A stretch of DNA of 64,000 bases, taken from NCBI GenBank assembly GCA_020161215.1, contig JAIUOM010000001.1:23170-87169 (forward strand), written 5' to 3'. The notes under the pieces were generated by a model. The model had not been told where the DNA came from, did not search any database, and saw nothing but the letters and a program-made list of their open reading frames with translations. A program made the position numbers and the translations under genes. Positions 2,177-59,620 of this stretch are shown here, piece by piece; within the stretch, counting starts at the first letter, position 1, and the number at the start of each line of letters is the position of its first letter. Origin of the DNA: Pseudomonadota bacterium. GTDB taxonomy: Bacteria; Pseudomonadota; Gammaproteobacteria; Burkholderiales; Burkholderiaceae_C.

Positions 2177-3745
2177 TCAAACGCCAGCGGGCACGAACAG
2201 ACCCTTGTGTTGGTCGCGCAGCAGGTTCTTCTGCACCTTGCCCATGGTGTTGCGTGGCAGCTCGGCGGCAATGAAGCAGCGCTTGGGAATCTTGAAGTTG
2301 GCCAGCTTGGCCTTCAGATCGGCGATCAGCCGCTCGGCGTCCAACGTGGCGCCGGCCTTGGGAATCACCACCAGCACGCCGACTTCCCCGAAATCGGGAT
2401 GCGGCACACCGACGACGGCGCTCTCGGCCACACCGGCCAATTCGTTGACGTAGCCCTCGATCTCGGCCGGGTACACGTTGTAGCCGCCGCTGATGATCAA
2501 ATCCTTGCTGCGTCCTACGATGGTGACGTAGCCACGCTCGTCCTGCTTGCCGACGTCGCCGGTCTTGAAAAAACCGTCGGCGGTGAACTCTTCCTTGGTT
2601 TTCTCGGGCATTTGCCAATAGCCGCTGAACACGTTCGGCCCCCTGACCTGGATGCCGCCGATCTCGCCCACCGGCACGGCCGCCCCCTCATCGTCCAGCA
2701 CGCGCAGTCCGACACCCGGCAGCGGAAAACCGACGGTGCCGCCACGGCGCTCGGACTGGCCCTGGTAGCGCCCATCGGCCCGGTATGGGTTGCTGGTCAG
2801 CATGATGGTCTCGCTCATGCCGTACCGCTCCAGGATGGTGTGGCCGGTGCGCGCCTGCCAGTCGTGGAAGGTCTCGATCAGCAGCGGCGCGGAGCCGCTG
2901 ATGAACAAGCGCATGTGCGCCGCCTGCTCGCGCGTCAGCGCCGCCTCGCCCAGCATGCGCACGTAGAGCGTGGGCACGCCCATGAACACGCTGGCGCGCG
3001 GCAGATCGGCGATCACCCGCTTGGGATCGAACTTGCCGTGCCAGAGCATCTTGCTGCCATTGAGCAGCGCGCCGTGGATGGCGACGAACAGGCCGTGCAC
3101 GTGGAAAATGGGCAGCGCGTGGATCAGCACGTCGCCTTTTTGCCAGCCCCAGTAGTCCTTGAGCATCACCGCGTTCGACAGCAGGTTGCCGTGCGAGAGC
3201 ATGGCGCCCTTGCTGCGGCCGGTGGTGCCGCTGGTGTAGAGGATGGCCGCCAAGTCGTCGGCCTGCCGGTGCACCGGGGTTTGCCGGTCCGAGCAATGCG
3301 CGGCACGCTCCAGCAGGCTGCCGCCGCGGTCGTCGTCGAGCGTGAAGACATGGCGCGTGCCAGCCTTGAAGGCGATCTTGCTGACCCAGTTGAAGTTGCC
3401 ACCGCCGCACACCACCACGGCGGGCTGGGCGTTGCCGATGAAGTACTCGATTTCCGCGCTCTGGTAGGCGGTGTTGAGCGGCAGGAACACGAAACCGGCA
3501 CGCAAGGTGGCCAGGTACAACACCATGGCCTCGACCGATTTCTCGACCTGCACCGCCACGCGCGGCGGCGCGCCGTCGTCGCGCTCGGGTATCTCCAGCG
3601 ACTGCAGCAGGTTGGCGACCATCGCGGTGGCGCGGTCCAGGTCGCGCCAGGAGTAGTTCAGACCGTTGTCGGTCTCGACGGCAATACCGTCCAAGTCGGC
3701 GGGAAAAGCATCGCGCAGCGCGCTGAAAAGGTTCTGCTGGGTCAT
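2177..3745 (-). CDS. matB: Malonyl-CoA synthetase (AMP-dependent ligase)
   Basis: AMP-binding motifs LYTSGTTGRSKGAMLSH, YGMSET and GDVGKQDERGYVTIVGRSKD. Close overall resemblance to remembered MatB sequences. A malonyl-CoA decarboxylase is in the same cluster. Confidence 0.75.
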   Translation of the reverse strand: MTQQNLFSALRDAFPADLDGIAVETDNGLNYSWRDLDRATAMVANLLQSLEIPERDDGAPPRVAVQVEKSVEAMVLYLATLRAGFVFLPLNTAYQSAEIEYFIGNAQPAVVVCGGGNFNWVSKIAFKAGTRHVFTLDDDRGGSLLERAAHCSDRQTPVHRQADDLAAILYTSGTTGRSKGAMLSHGNLLSNAVMLKDYWGWQKGDVLIHALPIFHVHGLFVAIHGALLNGSKMLWHGKFDPKRVIADLPRASVFMGVPTLYVRMLGEAALTREQAAHMRLFISGSAPLLIETFHDWQARTGHTILERYGMSETIMLTSNPYRADGRYQGQSERRGGTVGFPLPGVGLRVLDDEGAAVPVGEIGGIQVRGPNVFSGYWQMPEKTKEEFTADGFFKTGDVGKQDERGYVTIVGRSKDLIISGGYNVYPAEIEGYVNELAGVAESAVVGVPHPDFGEVGVLVVIPKAGATLDAERLIADLKAKLANFKIPKRCFIAAELPRNTMGKVQKNLLRDQHKGLFVPAGV

Positions 3746-19933: not shown

Positions 19934-20557
19934 TCAGTGCAGGTGGCGCGGCCGGCGGCCCCCGCCGTGGCCCGGCGTGCCGCCACCGGGACTGCGCGGC
20001 TTGCCCAGCTCCAGCGAGCTGGTGAGCGCATTGAAGCGGTTGTCGAACAGCTTGTCGATCTCGGCGACCACGCCACCCAGTTCGGCACCGTCGAAATGCC
20101 GCTCCATCAGGCTGACCACGTCCTCGACCAGCAGATCGCGCTGCGCCTGCATGATGGCCTCGGGCGTAGGGCCCACGAACAGCAGGACAAAGTCGTCGCG
20201 CGCATCGCGACCGTCTTCTTCGTCGTCCTCGTCGTAGTCGACGTCGTAGAAGGTGACCTCGATCTGCGAGCCCTCGGCGGAAAGCTCGTTCAGGTTCATG
20301 CACAGATCGTCGAGTTGATGACGGAAGTCGTCCTCGCCGCGCAAGGTCCAGCACATCTGCAGCAGGTGCTGGTGCGGGTCGAAGCGGATACCGGGCTCGT
20401 CCTCGTACAGGCTGGCCGCACCATCGGCCAGCGAGCGTCCACCGGCGTACTTCCACAGGGGTTTGAGGGCTTCCTGCAAGGCATCGAAGCGCACGTCGCC
20501 GCGCAGCTTGACATCGCCATGCACGTGAATCTCGAAAGGTGCGTCGTCGTGATTCAT
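19934..20557 (-). CDS. Hypothetical acidic protein
   Basis: 207-aa ORF with an Asp/Glu-rich centre (YDVDYDEDDEEDGRD). It starts 23 nt downstream of the tRNA-Leu 3' end on the same strand. Confidence 0.5.
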   Translation of the reverse strand: MNHDDAPFEIHVHGDVKLRGDVRFDALQEALKPLWKYAGGRSLADGAASLYEDEPGIRFDPHQHLLQMCWTLRGEDDFRHQLDDLCMNLNELSAEGSQIEVTFYDVDYDEDDEEDGRDARDDFVLLFVGPTPEAIMQAQRDLLVEDVVSLMERHFDGAELGGVVAEIDKLFDNRFNALTSSLELGKPRSPGGGTPGHGGGRRPRHLH

Positions 20558-20580: not shown

Positions 20581-20644
20581 TGGTACCCCGGGCCGGGATC
20601 GAACCGGCACGCCGCCTTTCGGCAAGCGGCGGATTTTAAGTCCG
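20581..20644 (-). pseudogene. 3' part of the split host tRNA-Leu(UAA) gene (anticodon loop to CCA)
   Basis: The reverse complement reads CGGACTTAAAATCCGCCGCTTGCCGAAAGGCGGCGTGCCGGTTCGATCCCGGCCCGGGGTACCA: anticodon-stem 3' strand, long variable arm, T arm GCCGG-TTCGATC-CCGGC, acceptor 3' strand, CCA. The matching 5' half lies at 59359-59397. Confidence 0.8.
20634..20644. repeat. attL core, 11-bp direct repeat TTTTAAGTCCG
   Basis: Identical 11-mer at 59359-59369; it corresponds to the anticodon loop plus part of the stem of tRNA-Leu(UAA). Confidence 0.8.
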
Positions 20645-20661
20645 ATACCGGGGCTCACTAC

Positions 20662-20750
20662 TGGTGCCACCGAGCGGACTCGAACCGCTAAGTCATTGAT
20701 TTGACGAGGGATTTTAAGTCCCCTGTGTTTACCGATTTCACCACGGTGGC
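20662..20750 (-). tRNA. Phage-borne tRNA-Leu (anticodon UAA), 89 nt including CCA
   Basis: The reverse complement GCCACCG-TG-GTGAAATCGGTAAACAC-A-GGGGA-CTTAAAA-TCCCT-C-GTCAAATCAATGAC-TT-AGCGG-TTCGAGT-CCGCT-CGGTGGC-A-CCA folds as a class II cloverleaf. The AT-rich variable arm is unlike the host copy. Confidence 0.8.
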
Positions 20751-20765
20751 GGCAAAGACAGCCAT

Positions 20766-20800
20766 TGTGACACGTCCCTGCCACAGGACTTGCCACAAGG
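20766..20800. promoter_or_regulatory. TGTGACAC-N4-CTGCCACA motif (copy A) plus an extra TGCCACAAG
   Basis: tgtgacacgtccctgccacaggacttgccacaagg. Related copies at 54240-54263 and 59175-59195. Confidence 0.4.
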
Positions 20801-20818: not shown

Positions 20819-20848
20819 AATAAAAACGACGCTTATTGGACAACCCGG
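20819..20848 (+). promoter_or_regulatory. Phage RNAP promoter candidate, copy 1 (29/30 match)
   Basis: aataaaaacgacGcttattggacaacccgg. The other three copies are identical 30-mers. It has an ACGAC core and an AT-rich block before GG, resembling T7-class promoters. Confidence 0.6.
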
Positions 20849-20960
20849 CTTCGGGGGTCCCGTAACGACACGTTCATGAGTTTTTCAGGCGACTTCAGGC
20901 CACCCAGGCTGAAGGTGAAGTGAAAAAGTTGATGAAGGCTATCCCCGTCAACCCCCCTAC

Positions 20961-21007: not shown

Positions 21008-23584
21008 GTGTCGGTTTTATCCCTTAAGGGCGGTGACGCCTTTTCTATTTACTTTGATTCTCTCGATCCCGAGATGGTCTCGGAACAGCTACGGATCGAA
21101 CAGGAAATCATGGAACGCGGGATAGATTCGTATTACCGCAACCTGGAGTCAGCTCGCCAGCGTGAGCAGGAGAACAGCACGAGCTTCGGCACCGCCTTGA
21201 TGAAGCGGTTCAATGCTGTGGTCGCGGATCGCATCGAAGAATTCCTCCGCTCCTTGGATACGGGCAAGCCCGGCAAGCGACACGCCTCCGCAAAGCACTT
21301 GCGGAAGATCAACCCCCGCAAGGCGGCATACCTCGCTCTCCTGGGATGCGTGGCTGGCATCCGATCAACTCGCCACCTCACTTCGGTGGCCTCTGTGGTT
21401 GGCCGAATGGTGGACGACGAGATGCGCCTGGAGGAGCTGAGAGAAAAGGACGCCAAGGAGGCGGGCAAGCTCGTGAAAAACGCCACGGAGCGGGTGTCGC
21501 ACCAGTTCCGCCGCACTTTTGTTCACCGCCACCTCAAGGGCGTCGTTGACGAGCTGCCGGCGCATGAGCGGGTCCACATCGGACTAGCCCTGATCGACTT
21601 CGTTATCGAGACCACGGGGCTGTTCCACGTTCAAGCCGCACGGGGCCGGAAAGGTAAGACGTACAACGAGTTGCTGCCGACACAAGCCGCCCTGGATTGG
21701 ATCGACCGACGCAACGCGGCAACCGAGGCCCTGCGCCCACAGCACGAGCCGATGGTGGTCCCGCCTATGCCTTGGTCGCCGGAGGAGTTCGGGGGCTATT
21801 TAACCTACGCCAAGCGGCCCTACCCGCTCGTGAAAACCCGCAACCAGGGGTTCCTCGCCGAGCTGCCCAACTACGAGATGCCTGTGATCTACGAGGCCAT
21901 CAACAACGTCCAGAACACGGGGTGGCAAGTGAACAACCGCGTCCTGGAAGTGATGAATAGCATGTGGGATGAGGACATTGCCGAGGCGGGTCTGCCCCAC
22001 CGTGGTGGCGTTCCTATCCCCCCAAAGCCGGCTGACATCGCAAGCAACGAGGAGTCCCGCAGGAGCTGGCGCCGCCGCGCTGCCGTCGCCTGGGCCGCAA
22101 ACAAGAGCCTGAGCGGCGAGCGCATCGCCACCAACTTGATGCTGGGCACCGCCAACAGGTTCGCCAAGTACCCGGCAATCTACTTCCCCTACCAGTACGA
22201 CTACCGTGGGCGCCTCTACTCTGTCCCCTCTGGACTATCCCCGCAAGGCGCTGACCCCGCCAAGGGCCTCCTCAGGTTCGCCGAGGGGAAGCCTTTGGGG
22301 GAGCGCGGGGCCTTCTGGCTGGCCTACCAAGGGGCCAACCTCGCCGGCAACGACAAGGTGACCTTCGAGGAGCGTGTGCAATGGGTCTGGGATAACGATG
22401 AGGCCATCCGGGCATGCGCCGCTGATCCGATGAACAACCGGGGCTGGTGCCGAGCCATTGGCGAAATCGCTATCGACTCCCCCTGGCAGTTCCTGGCGTT
22501 CTGTTTCGAGTGGAACGATTACCGGGCGGACCCGGACGGCTTCGTGTCGCACCTGTCGGTGGCAATGGACGGCTCGTGTTCGGGAATCCAACACTTCAGC
22601 GCCATGCTGCGAGACCCCAGCGGCGCCCGCGCTGTGAACCTCACCCCTGAGGAGCGGCCCCAGGACGTGTACCGGATCGTGGCGGACGCCGTGAGTGCCG
22701 AGCTGCGCCGAGACCTGGAACATGGCACCGAGGACAGTCTAAGCCACACCAAGGATGGCGCGGCTGTGGTGATTCAGGGCACCAAGACCCTCGCCGCTCA
22801 GTGGCTGGAGTTCGGGGTGACACGCAAGGTGACCAAGCGCCCGGTGATGACGCTCGCCTACGGGTCGAAAGAGTACGGGTTCACCGACCAGCTCCTTGAC
22901 GACATCCTGGACCCGGCCCTGGCCCACGCCACAGGCCCTGATGGGAGCATCGACAAGGACCTCTACCCGTTCACCGGGGACAAGAACGCGACTGCCCGCT
23001 ACCTCGCCAAGAAAATCTGGGCTTCGGTCACGGAGACCCTGGTGGCGGCAACCTCAGCGATGAAGTGGCTCCAGTCGGTGGCTAACCGGGTCGCCAAGGA
23101 GAACATCCCGGCCCGCTGGGAGAACGCCGTGGGCTTCCCAGTGATGCAGGCGTACCCGGACATGCGTACACGCCGAGTAACGACCAGCCTGCACGGTGGT
23201 CTCACCCTGCCGCTGCTGGAACCGAGCAAGGACGGCGGGCTGAACGTGCGGAAGATGGAGGACGGCATTGCGCCGAACTTCGTCCACTCCTGCGATGCCG
23301 CTCACCTGACCCTCACTGTGGTCCGGGGCGAGGAGTCCGGGGTTACCTCGTTCGCCGTGGTCCATGACTCGTTCGGGACCCACGCCTGCGACATGGACGT
23401 GTATTTCAAGGCGGTCCGCGAGGCGTTCGTGGAAATCTACGGGGGGATAAACGTGCTTGGCAATTTCCAGGACTCAATGGCTGAGTTGGTCGCCCCGGAG
23501 GTGGCGGCGAAGTTCCCGCCGATACCGCCCGTTGGCTCTCTGGACCTAGAGGCCGTCAAGGCGAGCAGGTATTGCTTTGCCTGA
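21008..23584 (+). CDS. T7-type single-subunit DNA-directed RNA polymerase
   Basis: DGSCSGIQHFSAMLRD, TKRPVMTLAYGSKEYGF, GIAPNFVHSCDAAHL, FAVVHDSFGTH and the C-terminal YCFA align with T7 RNAP motifs. GTG start with GGAG 12 nt upstream. Confidence 0.9.
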   Translation: MSVLSLKGGDAFSIYFDSLDPEMVSEQLRIEQEIMERGIDSYYRNLESARQREQENSTSFGTALMKRFNAVVADRIEEFLRSLDTGKPGKRHASAKHLRKINPRKAAYLALLGCVAGIRSTRHLTSVASVVGRMVDDEMRLEELREKDAKEAGKLVKNATERVSHQFRRTFVHRHLKGVVDELPAHERVHIGLALIDFVIETTGLFHVQAARGRKGKTYNELLPTQAALDWIDRRNAATEALRPQHEPMVVPPMPWSPEEFGGYLTYAKRPYPLVKTRNQGFLAELPNYEMPVIYEAINNVQNTGWQVNNRVLEVMNSMWDEDIAEAGLPHRGGVPIPPKPADIASNEESRRSWRRRAAVAWAANKSLSGERIATNLMLGTANRFAKYPAIYFPYQYDYRGRLYSVPSGLSPQGADPAKGLLRFAEGKPLGERGAFWLAYQGANLAGNDKVTFEERVQWVWDNDEAIRACAADPMNNRGWCRAIGEIAIDSPWQFLAFCFEWNDYRADPDGFVSHLSVAMDGSCSGIQHFSAMLRDPSGARAVNLTPEERPQDVYRIVADAVSAELRRDLEHGTEDSLSHTKDGAAVVIQGTKTLAAQWLEFGVTRKVTKRPVMTLAYGSKEYGFTDQLLDDILDPALAHATGPDGSIDKDLYPFTGDKNATARYLAKKIWASVTETLVAATSAMKWLQSVANRVAKENIPARWENAVGFPVMQAYPDMRTRRVTTSLHGGLTLPLLEPSKDGGLNVRKMEDGIAPNFVHSCDAAHLTLTVVRGEESGVTSFAVVHDSFGTHACDMDVYFKAVREAFVEIYGGINVLGNFQDSMAELVAPEVAAKFPPIPPVGSLDLEAVKASRYCFA
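21061..21074. promoter_or_regulatory. Palindromic operator-type site TCTCG-ATCC-CGAGA inside the 5' end of the RNAP gene
   Basis: Perfect 5-bp arms; belongs to the TCTCG-N4-CGAGA family (see findings). Confidence 0.45.
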
Positions 23585-23624: not shown

Positions 23625-23654
23625 AATAAAAACGACCCTTATTGGACAACCCGG
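23625..23654 (+). promoter_or_regulatory. Phage RNAP promoter candidate, copy 2
   Basis: aataaaaacgacccttattggacaacccgg, identical to copies 3 and 4. Confidence 0.6.
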
Positions 23655-23696
23655 CGTCTTCGTCAGGTGTCCTCCTCACCCAACCAAAGGATCACC

Positions 23697-33957: not shown

Positions 33958-34236
33958 ATGAACCACCTGTCCATCTTCATCGCCCTCGTTGTCGCCGCCG
34001 TCATCATCCTGACTGTTTGGGTGGCCGTCGTGGCCGTCAAGACATTCATCGCCCAACACCGCGCAGGCCAAGAGCCGACCGTCAAGGGTGCCTTCAAAAG
34101 CGCTCTGGCAGACGTGGCTTTCACCATCGCTACCCCGTTCCGCAAGCTGTGGGCCAAGGTACGTGCTGGGTGGGCCAGTGTCTCTGCCAAGGTCGCAGCC
34201 ATCATGCTCGCCCTGACGATTGCTATCCAAAAATAA
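33958..34236 (+). CDS. Small membrane protein (2 TM)
   Basis: IFIALVVAAVIILTVWVAVVAV and AAIMLALTIAI hydrophobic segments. Confidence 0.5.
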   Translation: MNHLSIFIALVVAAVIILTVWVAVVAVKTFIAQHRAGQEPTVKGAFKSALADVAFTIATPFRKLWAKVRAGWASVSAKVAAIMLALTIAIQK

Positions 34237-34261
34237 AAACGACCCTTATTGGACAACCCGG
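34232..34261 (+). promoter_or_regulatory. Phage RNAP promoter candidate, copy 3 (head of the structural module)
   Basis: Identical 30-mer. Confidence 0.6.
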
Positions 34262-34267
34262 CGAAGT

Positions 34268-53687: not shown

Positions 53688-53717
53688 AATAAAAACGACC
53701 CTTATTGGACAACCCGG
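53688..53717 (+). promoter_or_regulatory. Phage RNAP promoter candidate, copy 4 (phiOR-like position, facing the non-coding terminus region)
   Basis: Identical 30-mer. Confidence 0.6.
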
Positions 53718-53973
53718 TGTGAATCGGCCTTGTCTGGGGAGCGTCCCTACTCATGGGTAGGACGGCGGCCTTTGGCAACTTTGCCGCTTGGGGACTAGTG
53801 AAGCCAACCAGGAGTCCAGATGGACTCTGTGGAATGTGGGTTTATGTTCTCTCTGCTCCTACCTCTTGTCTATCTCTGGGACCCCGTAAAGGCCCTCTAG
53901 AGGTTCAATCTACGGGGGGTAGGGGGGGAGTTGAAAACAGCTCGCTCCCAGAGAGTCCTACCTCAACTACCTC

Positions 53974-54480: not shown

Positions 54481-54648
54481 CCACCTCTAGGCCACCTCCA
54501 GGCACTGCACCGAGCCACCCCAGGCACTGCACCGAGCCACCTCCAGGCCACCTCCAGGCCACCTCCAGGCACCCCCAGGCCACCTCCAGGCCACCTCCAG
54601 GCACTGCACCTCTAGGCCACCTCCAGGCACTACACCGGGCCACCCAAG
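54481..54648 (+). repeat. Degenerate tandem array: ~11 copies of the 11-bp unit GCCACCTCCAG interspersed with 4 copies of GCACTGCACCGA-like units
   Basis: Read directly. Flanked by AT-rich DNA at 54355-54476 and 54652-54745. Confidence 0.8.
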
Positions 54649-58088: not shown

Positions 58089-59312
58089 ATGCCTATCTAT
58101 GAACGAGGAGGCGCCTTTCAGGTGTCCGTGGGGTCAGGGGCTGCGCGAAAGCGCGAGACGACCTCCACCAGAGCGGAAGCCGAGGCCCTTGAACTGGCCC
58201 TGCTGGCCGAGTTGCGCGATGAAAAGCTGCGACGTGTAGCGGCCCGCGCCCAGGGTGACCCAGCAAAGACTGTGGGGCACGCTGTCGAGGCCGCTATTCG
58301 GGACCACTGGCTGGACACCAAGAGCCGACGCACTACGGAGCTGAATGTGCGCGACATCGCCGCCATCCTCGGATGGGACCGCCCGCTGGTGAGCCTCATG
58401 ACGAGTGACGTGGACGACGCCGTTGCGGAGCTGATTGAGCGCGGAATCACCGGGTCCACGATCAACCGCAAGCTGTCCGCCCTGAGCGTGTCCCTGCGCA
58501 ACGCCCGCCGCAAAGGGTGGGTGAAGGACCTACCGGACATCCTCAGGAGGAAAGAATCGGAATGTCGCATCGGCTGGTACACGGAGGAGACCGAGAAGCT
58601 GATGCTGGACACATGCGAGCGGCTGGGTCTGAATGCCCTGGCGAACTTCATCACGGTTGGCATCGACACTGGGTTCCGCCGCACGGAGATGCTGCGGCTG
58701 GTCCCTGCCGACTTAGCTGGCGGTCTGGTCATCCTGCATGCTGGGGAAACCAAGAGCGGTAAGGCCCGCGCTGTGCCCGCTACGGAGTCCGTGGTTGCCG
58801 TCTTTGAAGCTGCCAAGGGGGTCGGTAGCCCCCGCGTGTTTCAGAGCCTCACAGACTCAATCCTGAGGTCGCAATGGTCCCAGCTCCGGGAGGCCCTACA
58901 TCGAGAGCAAGACCCGTTCTTCATCGTGCACACCCTGCGTCATACCACAGCCACCCGGCTGGCCTTCGCTGGGGCCACCGCACCGCAGATCATGGCGTTC
59001 ATGGGGCACTCAAGCCTTCAGGTCTCGCAGAAGTACATCCACCTTGCTGCGGAACACGTCAAAGGGATTGAAGTGCTGTTGACCAGGAAGGCCCCAAGGG
59101 TGGTTTCAGCCCCCCTGCCGACACCTCTGCCGGTTCCCGCTCAACCCGCTGCTGGGGACCCTACTGAGGCACCTTGTGACACCAAACCTGCCACAAACCC
59201 CCTTTTTCGCCAATCATTCTCGATATCGGGACCATCTCAATATCGAGTTACAAATCAACAGTTTAGTGGGTTTTCACTGGGCAACTTAGGAGGGCCGTGG
59301 CAGAAAACATAA
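58089..59312 (+). CDS. Tyrosine recombinase/integrase
   Basis: RRTEMLRL (Arg I), HTLRHTTATRL (HxxR), MGHSSLQVSQKYIH (His...Tyr). About 85 non-conserved-looking C-terminal residues overlap regulatory motifs. Confidence 0.85.
   Translation: MPIYERGGAFQVSVGSGAARKRETTSTRAEAEALELALLAELRDEKLRRVAARAQGDPAKTVGHAVEAAIRDHWLDTKSRRTTELNVRDIAAILGWDRPLVSLMTSDVDDAVAELIERGITGSTINRKLSALSVSLRNARRKGWVKDLPDILRRKESECRIGWYTEETEKLMLDTCERLGLNALANFITVGIDTGFRRTEMLRLVPADLAGGLVILHAGETKSGKARAVPATESVVAVFEAAKGVGSPRVFQSLTDSILRSQWSQLREALHREQDPFFIVHTLRHTTATRLAFAGATAPQIMAFMGHSSLQVSQKYIHLAAEHVKGIEVLLTRKAPRVVSAPLPTPLPVPAQPAAGDPTEAPCDTKPATNPLFRQSFSISGPSQYRVTNQQFSGFSLGNLGGPWQKT
59175..59195. promoter_or_regulatory. TGTGACAC-N5-CTGCCACA motif (copy C)
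   Basis: tgtgacaccaaacctgccaca, 164 bp from the attR core. Confidence 0.4.
59218..59248. promoter_or_regulatory. Operator pair O4: TCTCGATATCGGGA + TCTCAATATCGAGT
   Basis: Same 14-mer and 17-bp register as O1/O2; inside the integrase 3' end. Confidence 0.5.
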
Positions 59313-59358
59313 TCGGATTCGAGAGCTTCGCGTCAACGGCAGGGACTTTAGCAGTGTC

Positions 59359-59369
59359 TTTTAAGTCCG
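59359..59369. repeat. attR core, 11-bp direct repeat TTTTAAGTCCG
   Basis: Identical to 20634-20644. Confidence 0.8.
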
Positions 59370-59397
59370 CTGTGTCTACCTGTTTCACCACCGGGGC
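59359..59397 (-). pseudogene. 5' part of the split host tRNA-Leu(UAA) gene (acceptor strand, D arm, anticodon stem 5' strand and loop)
   Basis: The reverse complement is GCCCCGG-TG-GTGAAACAGGTAGACAC-A-GCGGA-CTTAAAA. The sequence then continues into non-tRNA phage DNA. Confidence 0.8.
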
Positions 59398-59493
59398 GAT
59401 TGTCCGGTCCCGATCATCCACGGCGGGCACGCTGGCCGAAACACTATACCCCCGCAGCCCCGTCGGCGCGAGTCGAACCCGCGGGTACCCATC

Positions 59494-59544: not shown

Positions 59545-59620
59545 TGGTGGGTCGTGCGTGACTCGAACACGCGACCAACGGATTAAAAGTCCGCTGCTCT
59601 ACCAACTGAGCTAACGACCC
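59545..59620 (-). tRNA. tRNA-Lys (anticodon UUU)
   Basis: The reverse complement GGGTCGTTAGCTCAGTTGGTAGAGCAGCGGACTTTTAATCCGTTGGTCGCGTGTTCGAGTCACGCACGACCCACCA folds as a canonical 76-nt cloverleaf. Confidence 0.9.

Follow-up and report, generated by a model that had tools for sequence, protein, structure and literature searches.

The attL junction of a T7-like prophage in a split tRNA-Leu(UAA) gene: a chimeric pseudo-tRNA that is probably a by-product of integration

In tRNA-dependent lysogeny, shown experimentally in mycobacteriophages such as Fionnbharth and Gaia, phage and host share a common core of about 8–17 bp, the host tRNA is not reconstructed and a cognate phage tRNA complements its loss (Guerrero-Bustamante and Hatfull, mBio 2024, PMC10865867). 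Fionnbharth, LeBron and Gaia combine a tyrosine integrase, an attB in a tRNA gene, a short core and a phage tRNA with the same anticodon, and the target of Gaia is a tRNA-Leu (PMC10865867). Other elements rebuild the gene that they enter, as described for the mycobacteriophages Boilgate and Omega (PMC10865867) and for the Islander islands (PMC4383910). Among the Autographiviridae, the integrase-bearing members have their genes in a T7-like order, in which int lies upstream of the polymerase gene; they include Limnohabitans phage YIMV22061 (PQ492660), the Ralstonia RsoP1EGY-type phages, Pseudomonas phage LUZ100, and the pelagiphages and cyanophage P-SSP7, both of which integrate at tRNA genes. 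The description of YIMV22061 does not discuss its att sites or the role of its tRNA (PMC12195039).

In the window, the whole stretch of 64,000 nt analysed here, an element of 38.7 kb lies between two copies of a short core and encodes a T7-type RNA polymerase, primase-helicase and terminase as well as a tyrosine integrase (Pfam RNA_pol, 1.6e-107; Helic-prim_T7_N, 1.6e-25; Terminase-T7_RNaseH-like, 1.3e-23). From about 20.6 to 59.4 kb the G+C content is 0.61, as against 0.67 outside. The best phage matches of the prophage are Autographiviridae, its polymerase, primase-helicase and terminase are those of that family and its closest isolated relative is YIMV22061, which has the same arrangement of int, core, tRNA-Leu(UAA) and RNA polymerase. 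Integrase identity to the integrase-bearing Autographiviridae is at most 48%, and YIMV22061 lacks the 8-mer GCCCCGGT discussed below while having an extra copy of an anticodon arm.

Compared feature by feature, the prophage appears to be a case of tRNA-dependent lysogeny in a Comamonadaceae-infecting clade of Autographiviridae. Its integrase gene adjoins attP, attB lies within a tRNA gene of the host, the shared core has only 11 bp and nothing is rebuilt; a phage tRNA-Leu(taa) is present, and in relatives the anticodon of this tRNA tracks that of the core. Unlike the actinobacteriophages, however, this is a T7-like podovirus of Comamonadaceae (Betaproteobacteria) whose need for its tRNA is presumed. 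The phage tRNA also lies inside the left arm of attP, 7–30 nt from the core and on the strand opposite the phage genes, and the orphan 3' half of the host gene is fused to an apparent scrap of a tRNA 5' end. As at rebuilding attP sites, integration is into a tRNA gene, a displaced tRNA fragment stays at one end and the integrase gene adjoins the promoter-proximal part of the tRNA. Rebuilding elements carry 40–50 bp of the 3' part of the tRNA and thereby restore the gene, whereas here the int-side arm holds no 3' half and the gene stays broken. The comparison would extend tRNA-dependent lysogeny from actinobacteriophages, the only phages in which experiments have shown it, to integrase-bearing T7-like phages of freshwater and wastewater Comamonadaceae, and it would give a concrete role to the single tRNA gene of these phages. 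The features at the left junction are as follows.

19934..20557, minus strand: host DUF6806 gene (Pfam DUF6806, 7.4e-82), its start codon 23 nt past the displaced tRNA 3' end
20581..20633, minus strand: displaced host 3' half of tRNA-Leu(UAA), 53 nt, ending in ACCA
20581..20654, minus strand: attL junction pseudo-tRNA, in which GCCCCGG-T-AT from the phage side is followed by the 11-bp core and then by the displaced 3' half of the host tRNA-Leu(UAA)
20634..20644, minus strand: attL copy of the 11-bp core CGGACTTAAAA, which covers the anticodon loop and, before it, the 3' part of the 5' strand of the anticodon stem
20647..20654, minus strand: GCCCCGGT, the acceptor-like block that lies phage-side in attL and equals positions 1–8 of the host tRNA-Leu
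20655..20661, minus strand: 7-nt spacer GTAGTGA, from the CCA end of the phage tRNA to the chimera
20662..20750, minus strand: phage tRNA-Leu(UAA), 89 nt (ARAGORN; Rfam RF00005, 59.3 bits), acceptor GCCACCG:CGGTGGC
20764..20797, minus strand: conserved region upstream of the phage tRNA, with a -10-like CACAAT (20769..20764) and TGTGGCA/TGTCACA repeats
21008..23584, plus strand: T7-type single-subunit RNA polymerase (Pfam RNA_pol, 1.6e-107, and RPOL_N), the first prophage gene by attL, closest homologue 54% identical

Read on the minus strand from 20654 to 20581, the 74-nt junction consists of GCCCCGG-U-AU-CGGACUUAAAA and then the 3' half of the host gene; GCCCCGG occupies 20654..20648, the T is position 20647 and the AT is 20646..20645. 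The displaced 3' half holds the anticodon-stem 3' strand, the long variable arm, the T arm, CCGGGGT and the terminal ACCA, with a T at position 72; it is single-copy within the window and equals intact Ottowia tRNA-Leu(UAA) genes except in the variable arm and at T72. Synteny shows that the position of DUF6806 next downstream of tRNA-Leu(UAA) is conserved in Comamonadaceae; the interval from the phage tRNA through the chimera to DUF6806 has no predicted terminator. An earlier, sequence-only reading of this DNA had located attL, the 11-bp core, the phage tRNA and the 7-nt spacing correctly, and its statement that GCCCCGG plus the following U is identical to the 5' acceptor strand and U8 of the host tRNA-Leu is borne out at 8 of 8 positions.

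From its place beside the core, the block appears to be phage-borne (GCCCCGGTAT). Searched exactly against 185,579 species genomes, the junction GCCCCGGTATCGGACTTAAAA gave 0 matches. The predicted attP, GGTATCGGACTTAAAAGACACTGC, had 0 exact matches in either IMG/VR or the JGI metagenomes; the free form of the phage was not seen. A gapped pattern running from the 3' end of the phage tRNA to GACTTAAAA had 0 matches in metagenomes, and a loose core pattern found only chance matches in viral contigs.

At the other end of the element the features are these.

58089..59312, plus strand: tyrosine integrase (Pfam Phage_integrase, 1.7e-15), its stop codon 46 nt from the attR core
59359..59369, minus strand: attR copy of the 11-bp core, with the same letters as the attL core
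59370..59397, minus strand: host 5' part of tRNA-Leu(UAA), from the GCCCCGG acceptor 5' strand and U8 through the D arm into the beginning of the anticodon stem

The minus strand of attR is GCCCCGGTGGTGAAACAGGTAGACACAG-CGGACTTAAAA (59397..59359) and then unrelated DNA; past the core lies phage DNA and no tRNA is rebuilt. GCCCCGGT starts the host 5' half here (59397..59390). What had been taken for a host tRNA-Leu at attR is thus a 39-nt 5' half in which ARAGORN and Rfam call nothing, and neither calls a tRNA at attL, attR or attP. When the host parts of attR and attL are joined to give attB, a normal 92-nt tRNA-Leu(taa) results. The sequence common to attL and attR is only 11 bp, and because phage and host share this core alone, the host tRNA is split and not rebuilt. 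The main point that the sequence-only reading overlooked is that integration destroys the host tRNA-Leu(UAA) and that the adjoining phage tRNA is its replacement; this replacing role is presumed from the sequence.

The host DUF6806 protein is up to 91% identical to that of Ottowia genomes, and most of the Ottowia-type loci fetched have an intact tRNA-Leu(UAA) that starts with GCCCCGGTGGTGAAAC and ends 15–25 nt before the DUF6806 start codon. Judged by these sequences, the host is an Ottowia species whose tRNA-Leu(UAA) gene holds the prophage in its anticodon loop. The tRNA-Lys gene at 59545..59620 was considered as the attachment site for the adjoining integrase; no 3'-end repeat of it occurs at the left end, and it was rejected because the tRNA-Leu halves and the core explain both junctions. 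A T-arm-like stretch at 59455..59490 is, according to Infernal, no tRNA remnant.

The arrangement of int, a short core in the anticodon loop, an opposite-strand phage tRNA-Leu and the RNA polymerase gene is common to all relatives, namely YIMV22061 (L001) and the loci L130, L131, L133, L428, L429 and L430. Their integrases are 47–51% and their RNA polymerases 42–54% identical to those of the window, and homologous tRNAs occupy the same place. The anticodon of the phage tRNA always equals that of the core, be it UAA (the window, L130, L001, L428, L429 and L430) or CAA (L131 and L133). One of them, L428, was found in Variovorax sp. PMC12 as a prophage that occupies the same tRNA-Leu/DUF6806 locus. 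Motifs like CACAAT and TGTGGCA also occur upstream of the tRNA in L130, L131, L133, L001, L277, L346, L347 and L429; the CACAAT region is plausibly a promoter and the repeats are plausibly arm-type sites of the integrase, and a simple sigma-70 scan found no match. No closer relatives of the prophage were found in the databases searched, and a single-protein search of genomes for RNA polymerase loci returned nothing. All contigs with an identical integrase (14) or an identical DUF6806 protein (18) are the same lysogen. Within-lineage constraint on attL cannot be measured, because the 10 metagenome copies compared are 100% identical and closer relatives are lacking.

Three Ottowia-like metagenome-assembled genomes (L277, L346 and L347) have a lone phage-type tRNA-Leu(UAA) with the CACAAT motif upstream of DUF6806, a degenerate host 3' half and no phage RNA polymerase nearby; in L277, the upstream neighbour of the phage-type tRNA is the host AlaRS gene. 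It appears that these genomes lost the prophage and kept its tRNA as their resident tRNA-Leu(UAA). Since the 3' halves are degenerate in all three, the orphan half is not maintained over time. The retention of the tRNA in the three genomes gives indirect support to the view that the phage tRNA is needed for viable lysogens and that the host gene is single-copy or essential. As an evolutionary after-effect of such lysogeny, we would thus have three genomes without a prophage whose phage tRNA has replaced the host tRNA-Leu(UAA). The replacement-tRNA architecture of the whole clade and these genomes with the phage tRNA alone are more useful than the chimera, which is most likely a by-product.

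Nine spacers between the CCA of the phage tRNA and the core were compared.

Window: GTAGTGA-GCCCCGGTATCG
L130: TCTGGCGCG
L131: ATGGACAGAA
L133: AATAACCGCA
L429: GCGTTGAA
L428: GCCAAAAACGACGTTCTCCA
L430: AACAGAAAACACTCGGGACA
L277: CGAAGCTATCGGTGGTG
L001: GCGGATG-CGGACTTAAACTCCG-TGCGAACA

Conservation of the acceptor-like block in related attP sites, by which the sequence-only reading had proposed to judge its idea, was not found: the block is absent from 8 of 8 related attP/attL sites. In L428 and L430, where the host 3' strand is known (TCCGGGT), the spacer holds no complementary 7-mer. Each of the nine spacers was tested, against shuffles, for the longest stretch that it shares exactly with the 5' part of the Ottowia tRNA-Leu. 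The window spacer has an exact 8-mer at tRNA positions 1–8 (p(shuffle) = 0.005) and the L277 spacer an overlapping exact 8-mer, CGGTGGTG, at positions 5–12 (p(shuffle) = 0.002), which abuts the core; the spacers of the other seven relatives have no such piece. L277 is the other Ottowia-type element that still holds the core. Ahead of its 8-mer stands GCTAT instead of the GCCC of the tRNA, and the piece cannot form an acceptor stem; what the window and L277 share would therefore be ancestry rather than the ability to pair. Between the phage tRNA and the presumed core, the attP of YIMV22061 holds a further, nearly perfect copy of a host-type anticodon arm, CGGACTTAAACTCCG (3270-3284), one more scrap of tRNA origin in the arm of an attP.

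RNAfold returns the proposed structure of the chimera, a 7-bp acceptor stem with a short anticodon stem, variable arm and T arm and no D arm, at -35.9 kcal/mol as against -28.8 +/- 3.3 for shuffles (z -2.1), and the module recurs when 201 nt of context are folded. With U/C at position 27:43, the anticodon arm, said to be kept, survives as a short stem of no more than 4 pairs, and the predicted fold forms 3. A G.U wobble makes up pair 1:72, and the link from the acceptor to the anticodon stem is only 3–4 nt. Infernal aligns the chimera end to end to tRNA-Sec, a tRNA-clan model, with 16 D-arm positions deleted and only 23.6 bits, far below the gathering score of 47. As a bacterial tRNA it receives no call from ARAGORN (bacterial settings, -ps) or from Rfam at the gathering score. 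The ARAGORN run with relaxed settings that had been suggested as a check does not recover it either, since the mitochondrial mode (-mt) gives a different fold in which the variable arm serves as the T arm. The chimera lacks the architecture of a D-arm-less tRNA of mitochondrial type, in which a D-replacement loop accompanies a normal anticodon and T arm. In silico it has the geometry of a minimal RNase P substrate, with 7 + 5 bp contiguous on the 3' strand and then ACCA. Like D-arm-less mitochondrial tRNAs and RNase P minihelices, it sets an acceptor stem on a T arm, has a 3' NCCA and lacks a D arm; those are evolved, conserved RNAs or designed substrates, whereas the chimera is a recombination junction known so far only as DNA sequence, is not conserved and has a 3–4-nt connector and a long variable arm.

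T72 lies at position 20585 of the window (G1.U72), and the displaced 3' halves of L428 and L430 likewise have T72. Among 135 distinct intact tRNA-Leu(UAA) genes, 127 have G1, C72 and A73 and only 3 (L185, L190 and L280) have T72, which is thus enriched in the displaced halves. Because those 3 intact genes bear it too, T72 is an ambiguous sign of decay.

The 7/7 match had been called unlikely by chance. GCCCCGG occurs 16 times on both strands of the prophage (77 kb), and the chance of finding it at any of the ~7 usable offsets is ~1.4e-3 (4.5e-4 with T8), which upholds the claim nominally; the match was nevertheless chosen after the fact, and for a 7-mer that pairs when wobbles are tolerated the chance rises to ~2.4e-2. 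The match is, at least nominally, non-random.

Several readings of the block compete. It may be an ordinary G+C-rich 8-mer in the attP spacer without tRNA ancestry: GCCCCGGT occurs 10 times in the window as against 6.3 expected, the match was picked from a 64-kb read and 7 of the 9 spacers hold no tRNA-like piece. Yet the positional probability is about 5e-4 to 1.4e-3 and a second element at an Ottowia locus, L277, has its overlapping 8-mer at the same place (p = 0.002), and we consider such a coincidence improbable. More likely than this, though still unlikely, is a processing handle or insulator specific to the lysogen, in which the block and the orphan 3' strand form a tRNA-like module that RNase P would cut 7 nt past the phage tRNA, setting its 3' trailer, blocking mispairing and freeing the DUF6806 mRNA. 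Were the chimera processed in this way, it would be an RNA element of a rare sort, brought into being only by site-specific recombination. Its acceptor stem of 7 bp is stacked on the T arm in the predicted fold, the match has its first letter exactly at +1, a spacer of just 7 nt precedes it and the stretch from the phage tRNA to DUF6806 is free of predicted terminators. Minihelices without D and anticodon arms are established RNase P substrates, and the chimera has the minimal features of a bacterial one (7+5 bp stacked, ACCA). When the dicistronic RNA is folded at equilibrium, the phage tRNA forms its acceptor stem with a probability of 0.81, compared with a mean of ~0.42 for shuffled or random blocks; the phage acceptor GCCACCG differs from the GCCCCGG of the host and several relatives, and a GCCCCGG acceptor would in silico pair with the orphan strand instead (cross-pairing 0.95). 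This folding test of the insulator role is not significant, however, since 10–22% of random blocks do as well, and equilibrium folding ignores co-transcriptional folding. The block is also missing from all related attP/attL sites, L428 and L430 do without it at a phage tRNA acceptor probability of 0.58–0.80, orphan halves decay in the remnants and the pair 1:72 is G.U.

A narrower version, that in this lineage only a 5' strand evolved that captures the orphan 3' half and forms a lysogen-only RNase P module co-evolved with the recoded GCCACCG acceptor, seems to us less likely again than the handle in general, if a shade more credible than coincidence. All relatives available are distant, with no more than 51% identity in the integrase and 54% in the RNA polymerase, and a young, lineage-specific function is therefore compatible with non-conservation. 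Very improbable, finally, is that the chimera works as a D-arm-less tRNA-Leu or as a decoy for an anticodon nuclease or other tRNA-targeting defence. It does retain the UAA anticodon loop, variable arm, T arm, A73 and CCA, but the link between its stems is 3–4 nt, the anticodon stem has 4 pairs at most, it falls under every tRNA threshold and it is not conserved. Bacterial LeuRS relies on the tertiary structure between D-loop and T-loop, which counts against charging of the chimera; a complete phage tRNA-Leu(UAA) adjoins it, and no Leu(UAA)-specific nuclease is indicated within the window. Neither the handle nor the decoy, both put forward by the sequence-only reading, has gained comparative support. 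Of the roles that it suggested, the relic of an ancestral captured tRNA is the one that has, through the L277 8-mer, the absence of the block elsewhere and the decay of orphan halves.

We therefore favour, as probable, the reading in which attL belongs to a T7-like prophage in a split tRNA-Leu(UAA), the 74-nt chimera is a by-product and the block is an eroded relic of a tRNA 5' half, because the window and L277 spacers hold overlapping 8-mers of the same tRNA 5' end. The tyrosine integrase inserted the prophage into the anticodon loop of the Ottowia tRNA-Leu(UAA) and so destroyed the host tRNA, with its 5' half left at attR and its 3' half at attL, and the phage tRNA-Leu(UAA) 7 nt upstream of the attL chimera would take over the decoding role of the lost tRNA. 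The chimera would then be the orphaned host 3' half fused to the phage attP left arm, probably co-transcribed with the phage tRNA and probably without a function. In the lineage that infects Ottowia, this left arm would formerly have held a tRNA-Leu 5' half, which different deletions may have eroded once a complete phage tRNA made rebuilding needless; the closing of the acceptor stem would be a consequence of ancestry and not a selected function. Against the relic stand a match that starts exactly at +1 and a spacing that allows a tRNA-like fold, at a chance of about 5e-4 to 1.4e-3. The relic reading agrees with a proposed route in which the gain of a cognate tRNA lifts the pressure to keep a core of rebuilding length (Guerrero-Bustamante and Hatfull, PMC10865867). 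Scraps of a tRNA 5' half in attP would then point to a possible origin of such systems in ancestors that rebuilt the tRNA.

In four further Ottowia genomes (L274, L281, L266 and L268), the tRNA-Leu(UAA) upstream of DUF6806 is interrupted by other elements with junctions of the form ...CTCTGG|CTTAAAATCCGCCGC, without an adjacent phage tRNA or with only decayed 3' halves left. The tRNA-Leu(UAA)/DUF6806 locus thus appears to be an integration hot spot.

Homologues of the integrase share at most 51% identity with it and have about 348 aa in all relatives, as against 407 aa in the window. The integrase of the window has a Pro/Ala-rich C-terminal extension of ~60 aa that ends 46 nt short of the attR core; in that place relatives have a terminator-like hairpin. 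On the int side, CTCGAATCCGAT (59315-59326 of the window, minus strand) and CTCGCATCCGAT (L001) both lie exactly 35 nt past the core and may be an arm-type site, a site for an accessory protein or a T-loop relic. As a relic of a 3' half, the T-loop-like CTCGAATCCGAT was set aside, for its significance could not be shown despite the same offset in L001.

Three families of repeats were seen in the prophage. AATAAAAACGACSCTTATTGGACAACCCGG occurs four times on the plus strand, at gene-block boundaries (20819-20852, 23625-23658, 34232-34265 and 53688-53721), and its copies are candidate promoters for the phage RNA polymerase. A motif with the near-palindrome TCTCGATATCGGGA at its centre occurs five times on the plus strand (21046, 23574, 54695, 55321 and 59203), once preceded by TTGACT, and is a candidate operator or early promoter. 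Direct repeats of the CACCTCCAGGCC type are clustered at 54482-54648, between the terminase and the early genes, and may mark the region of the phage genome ends.
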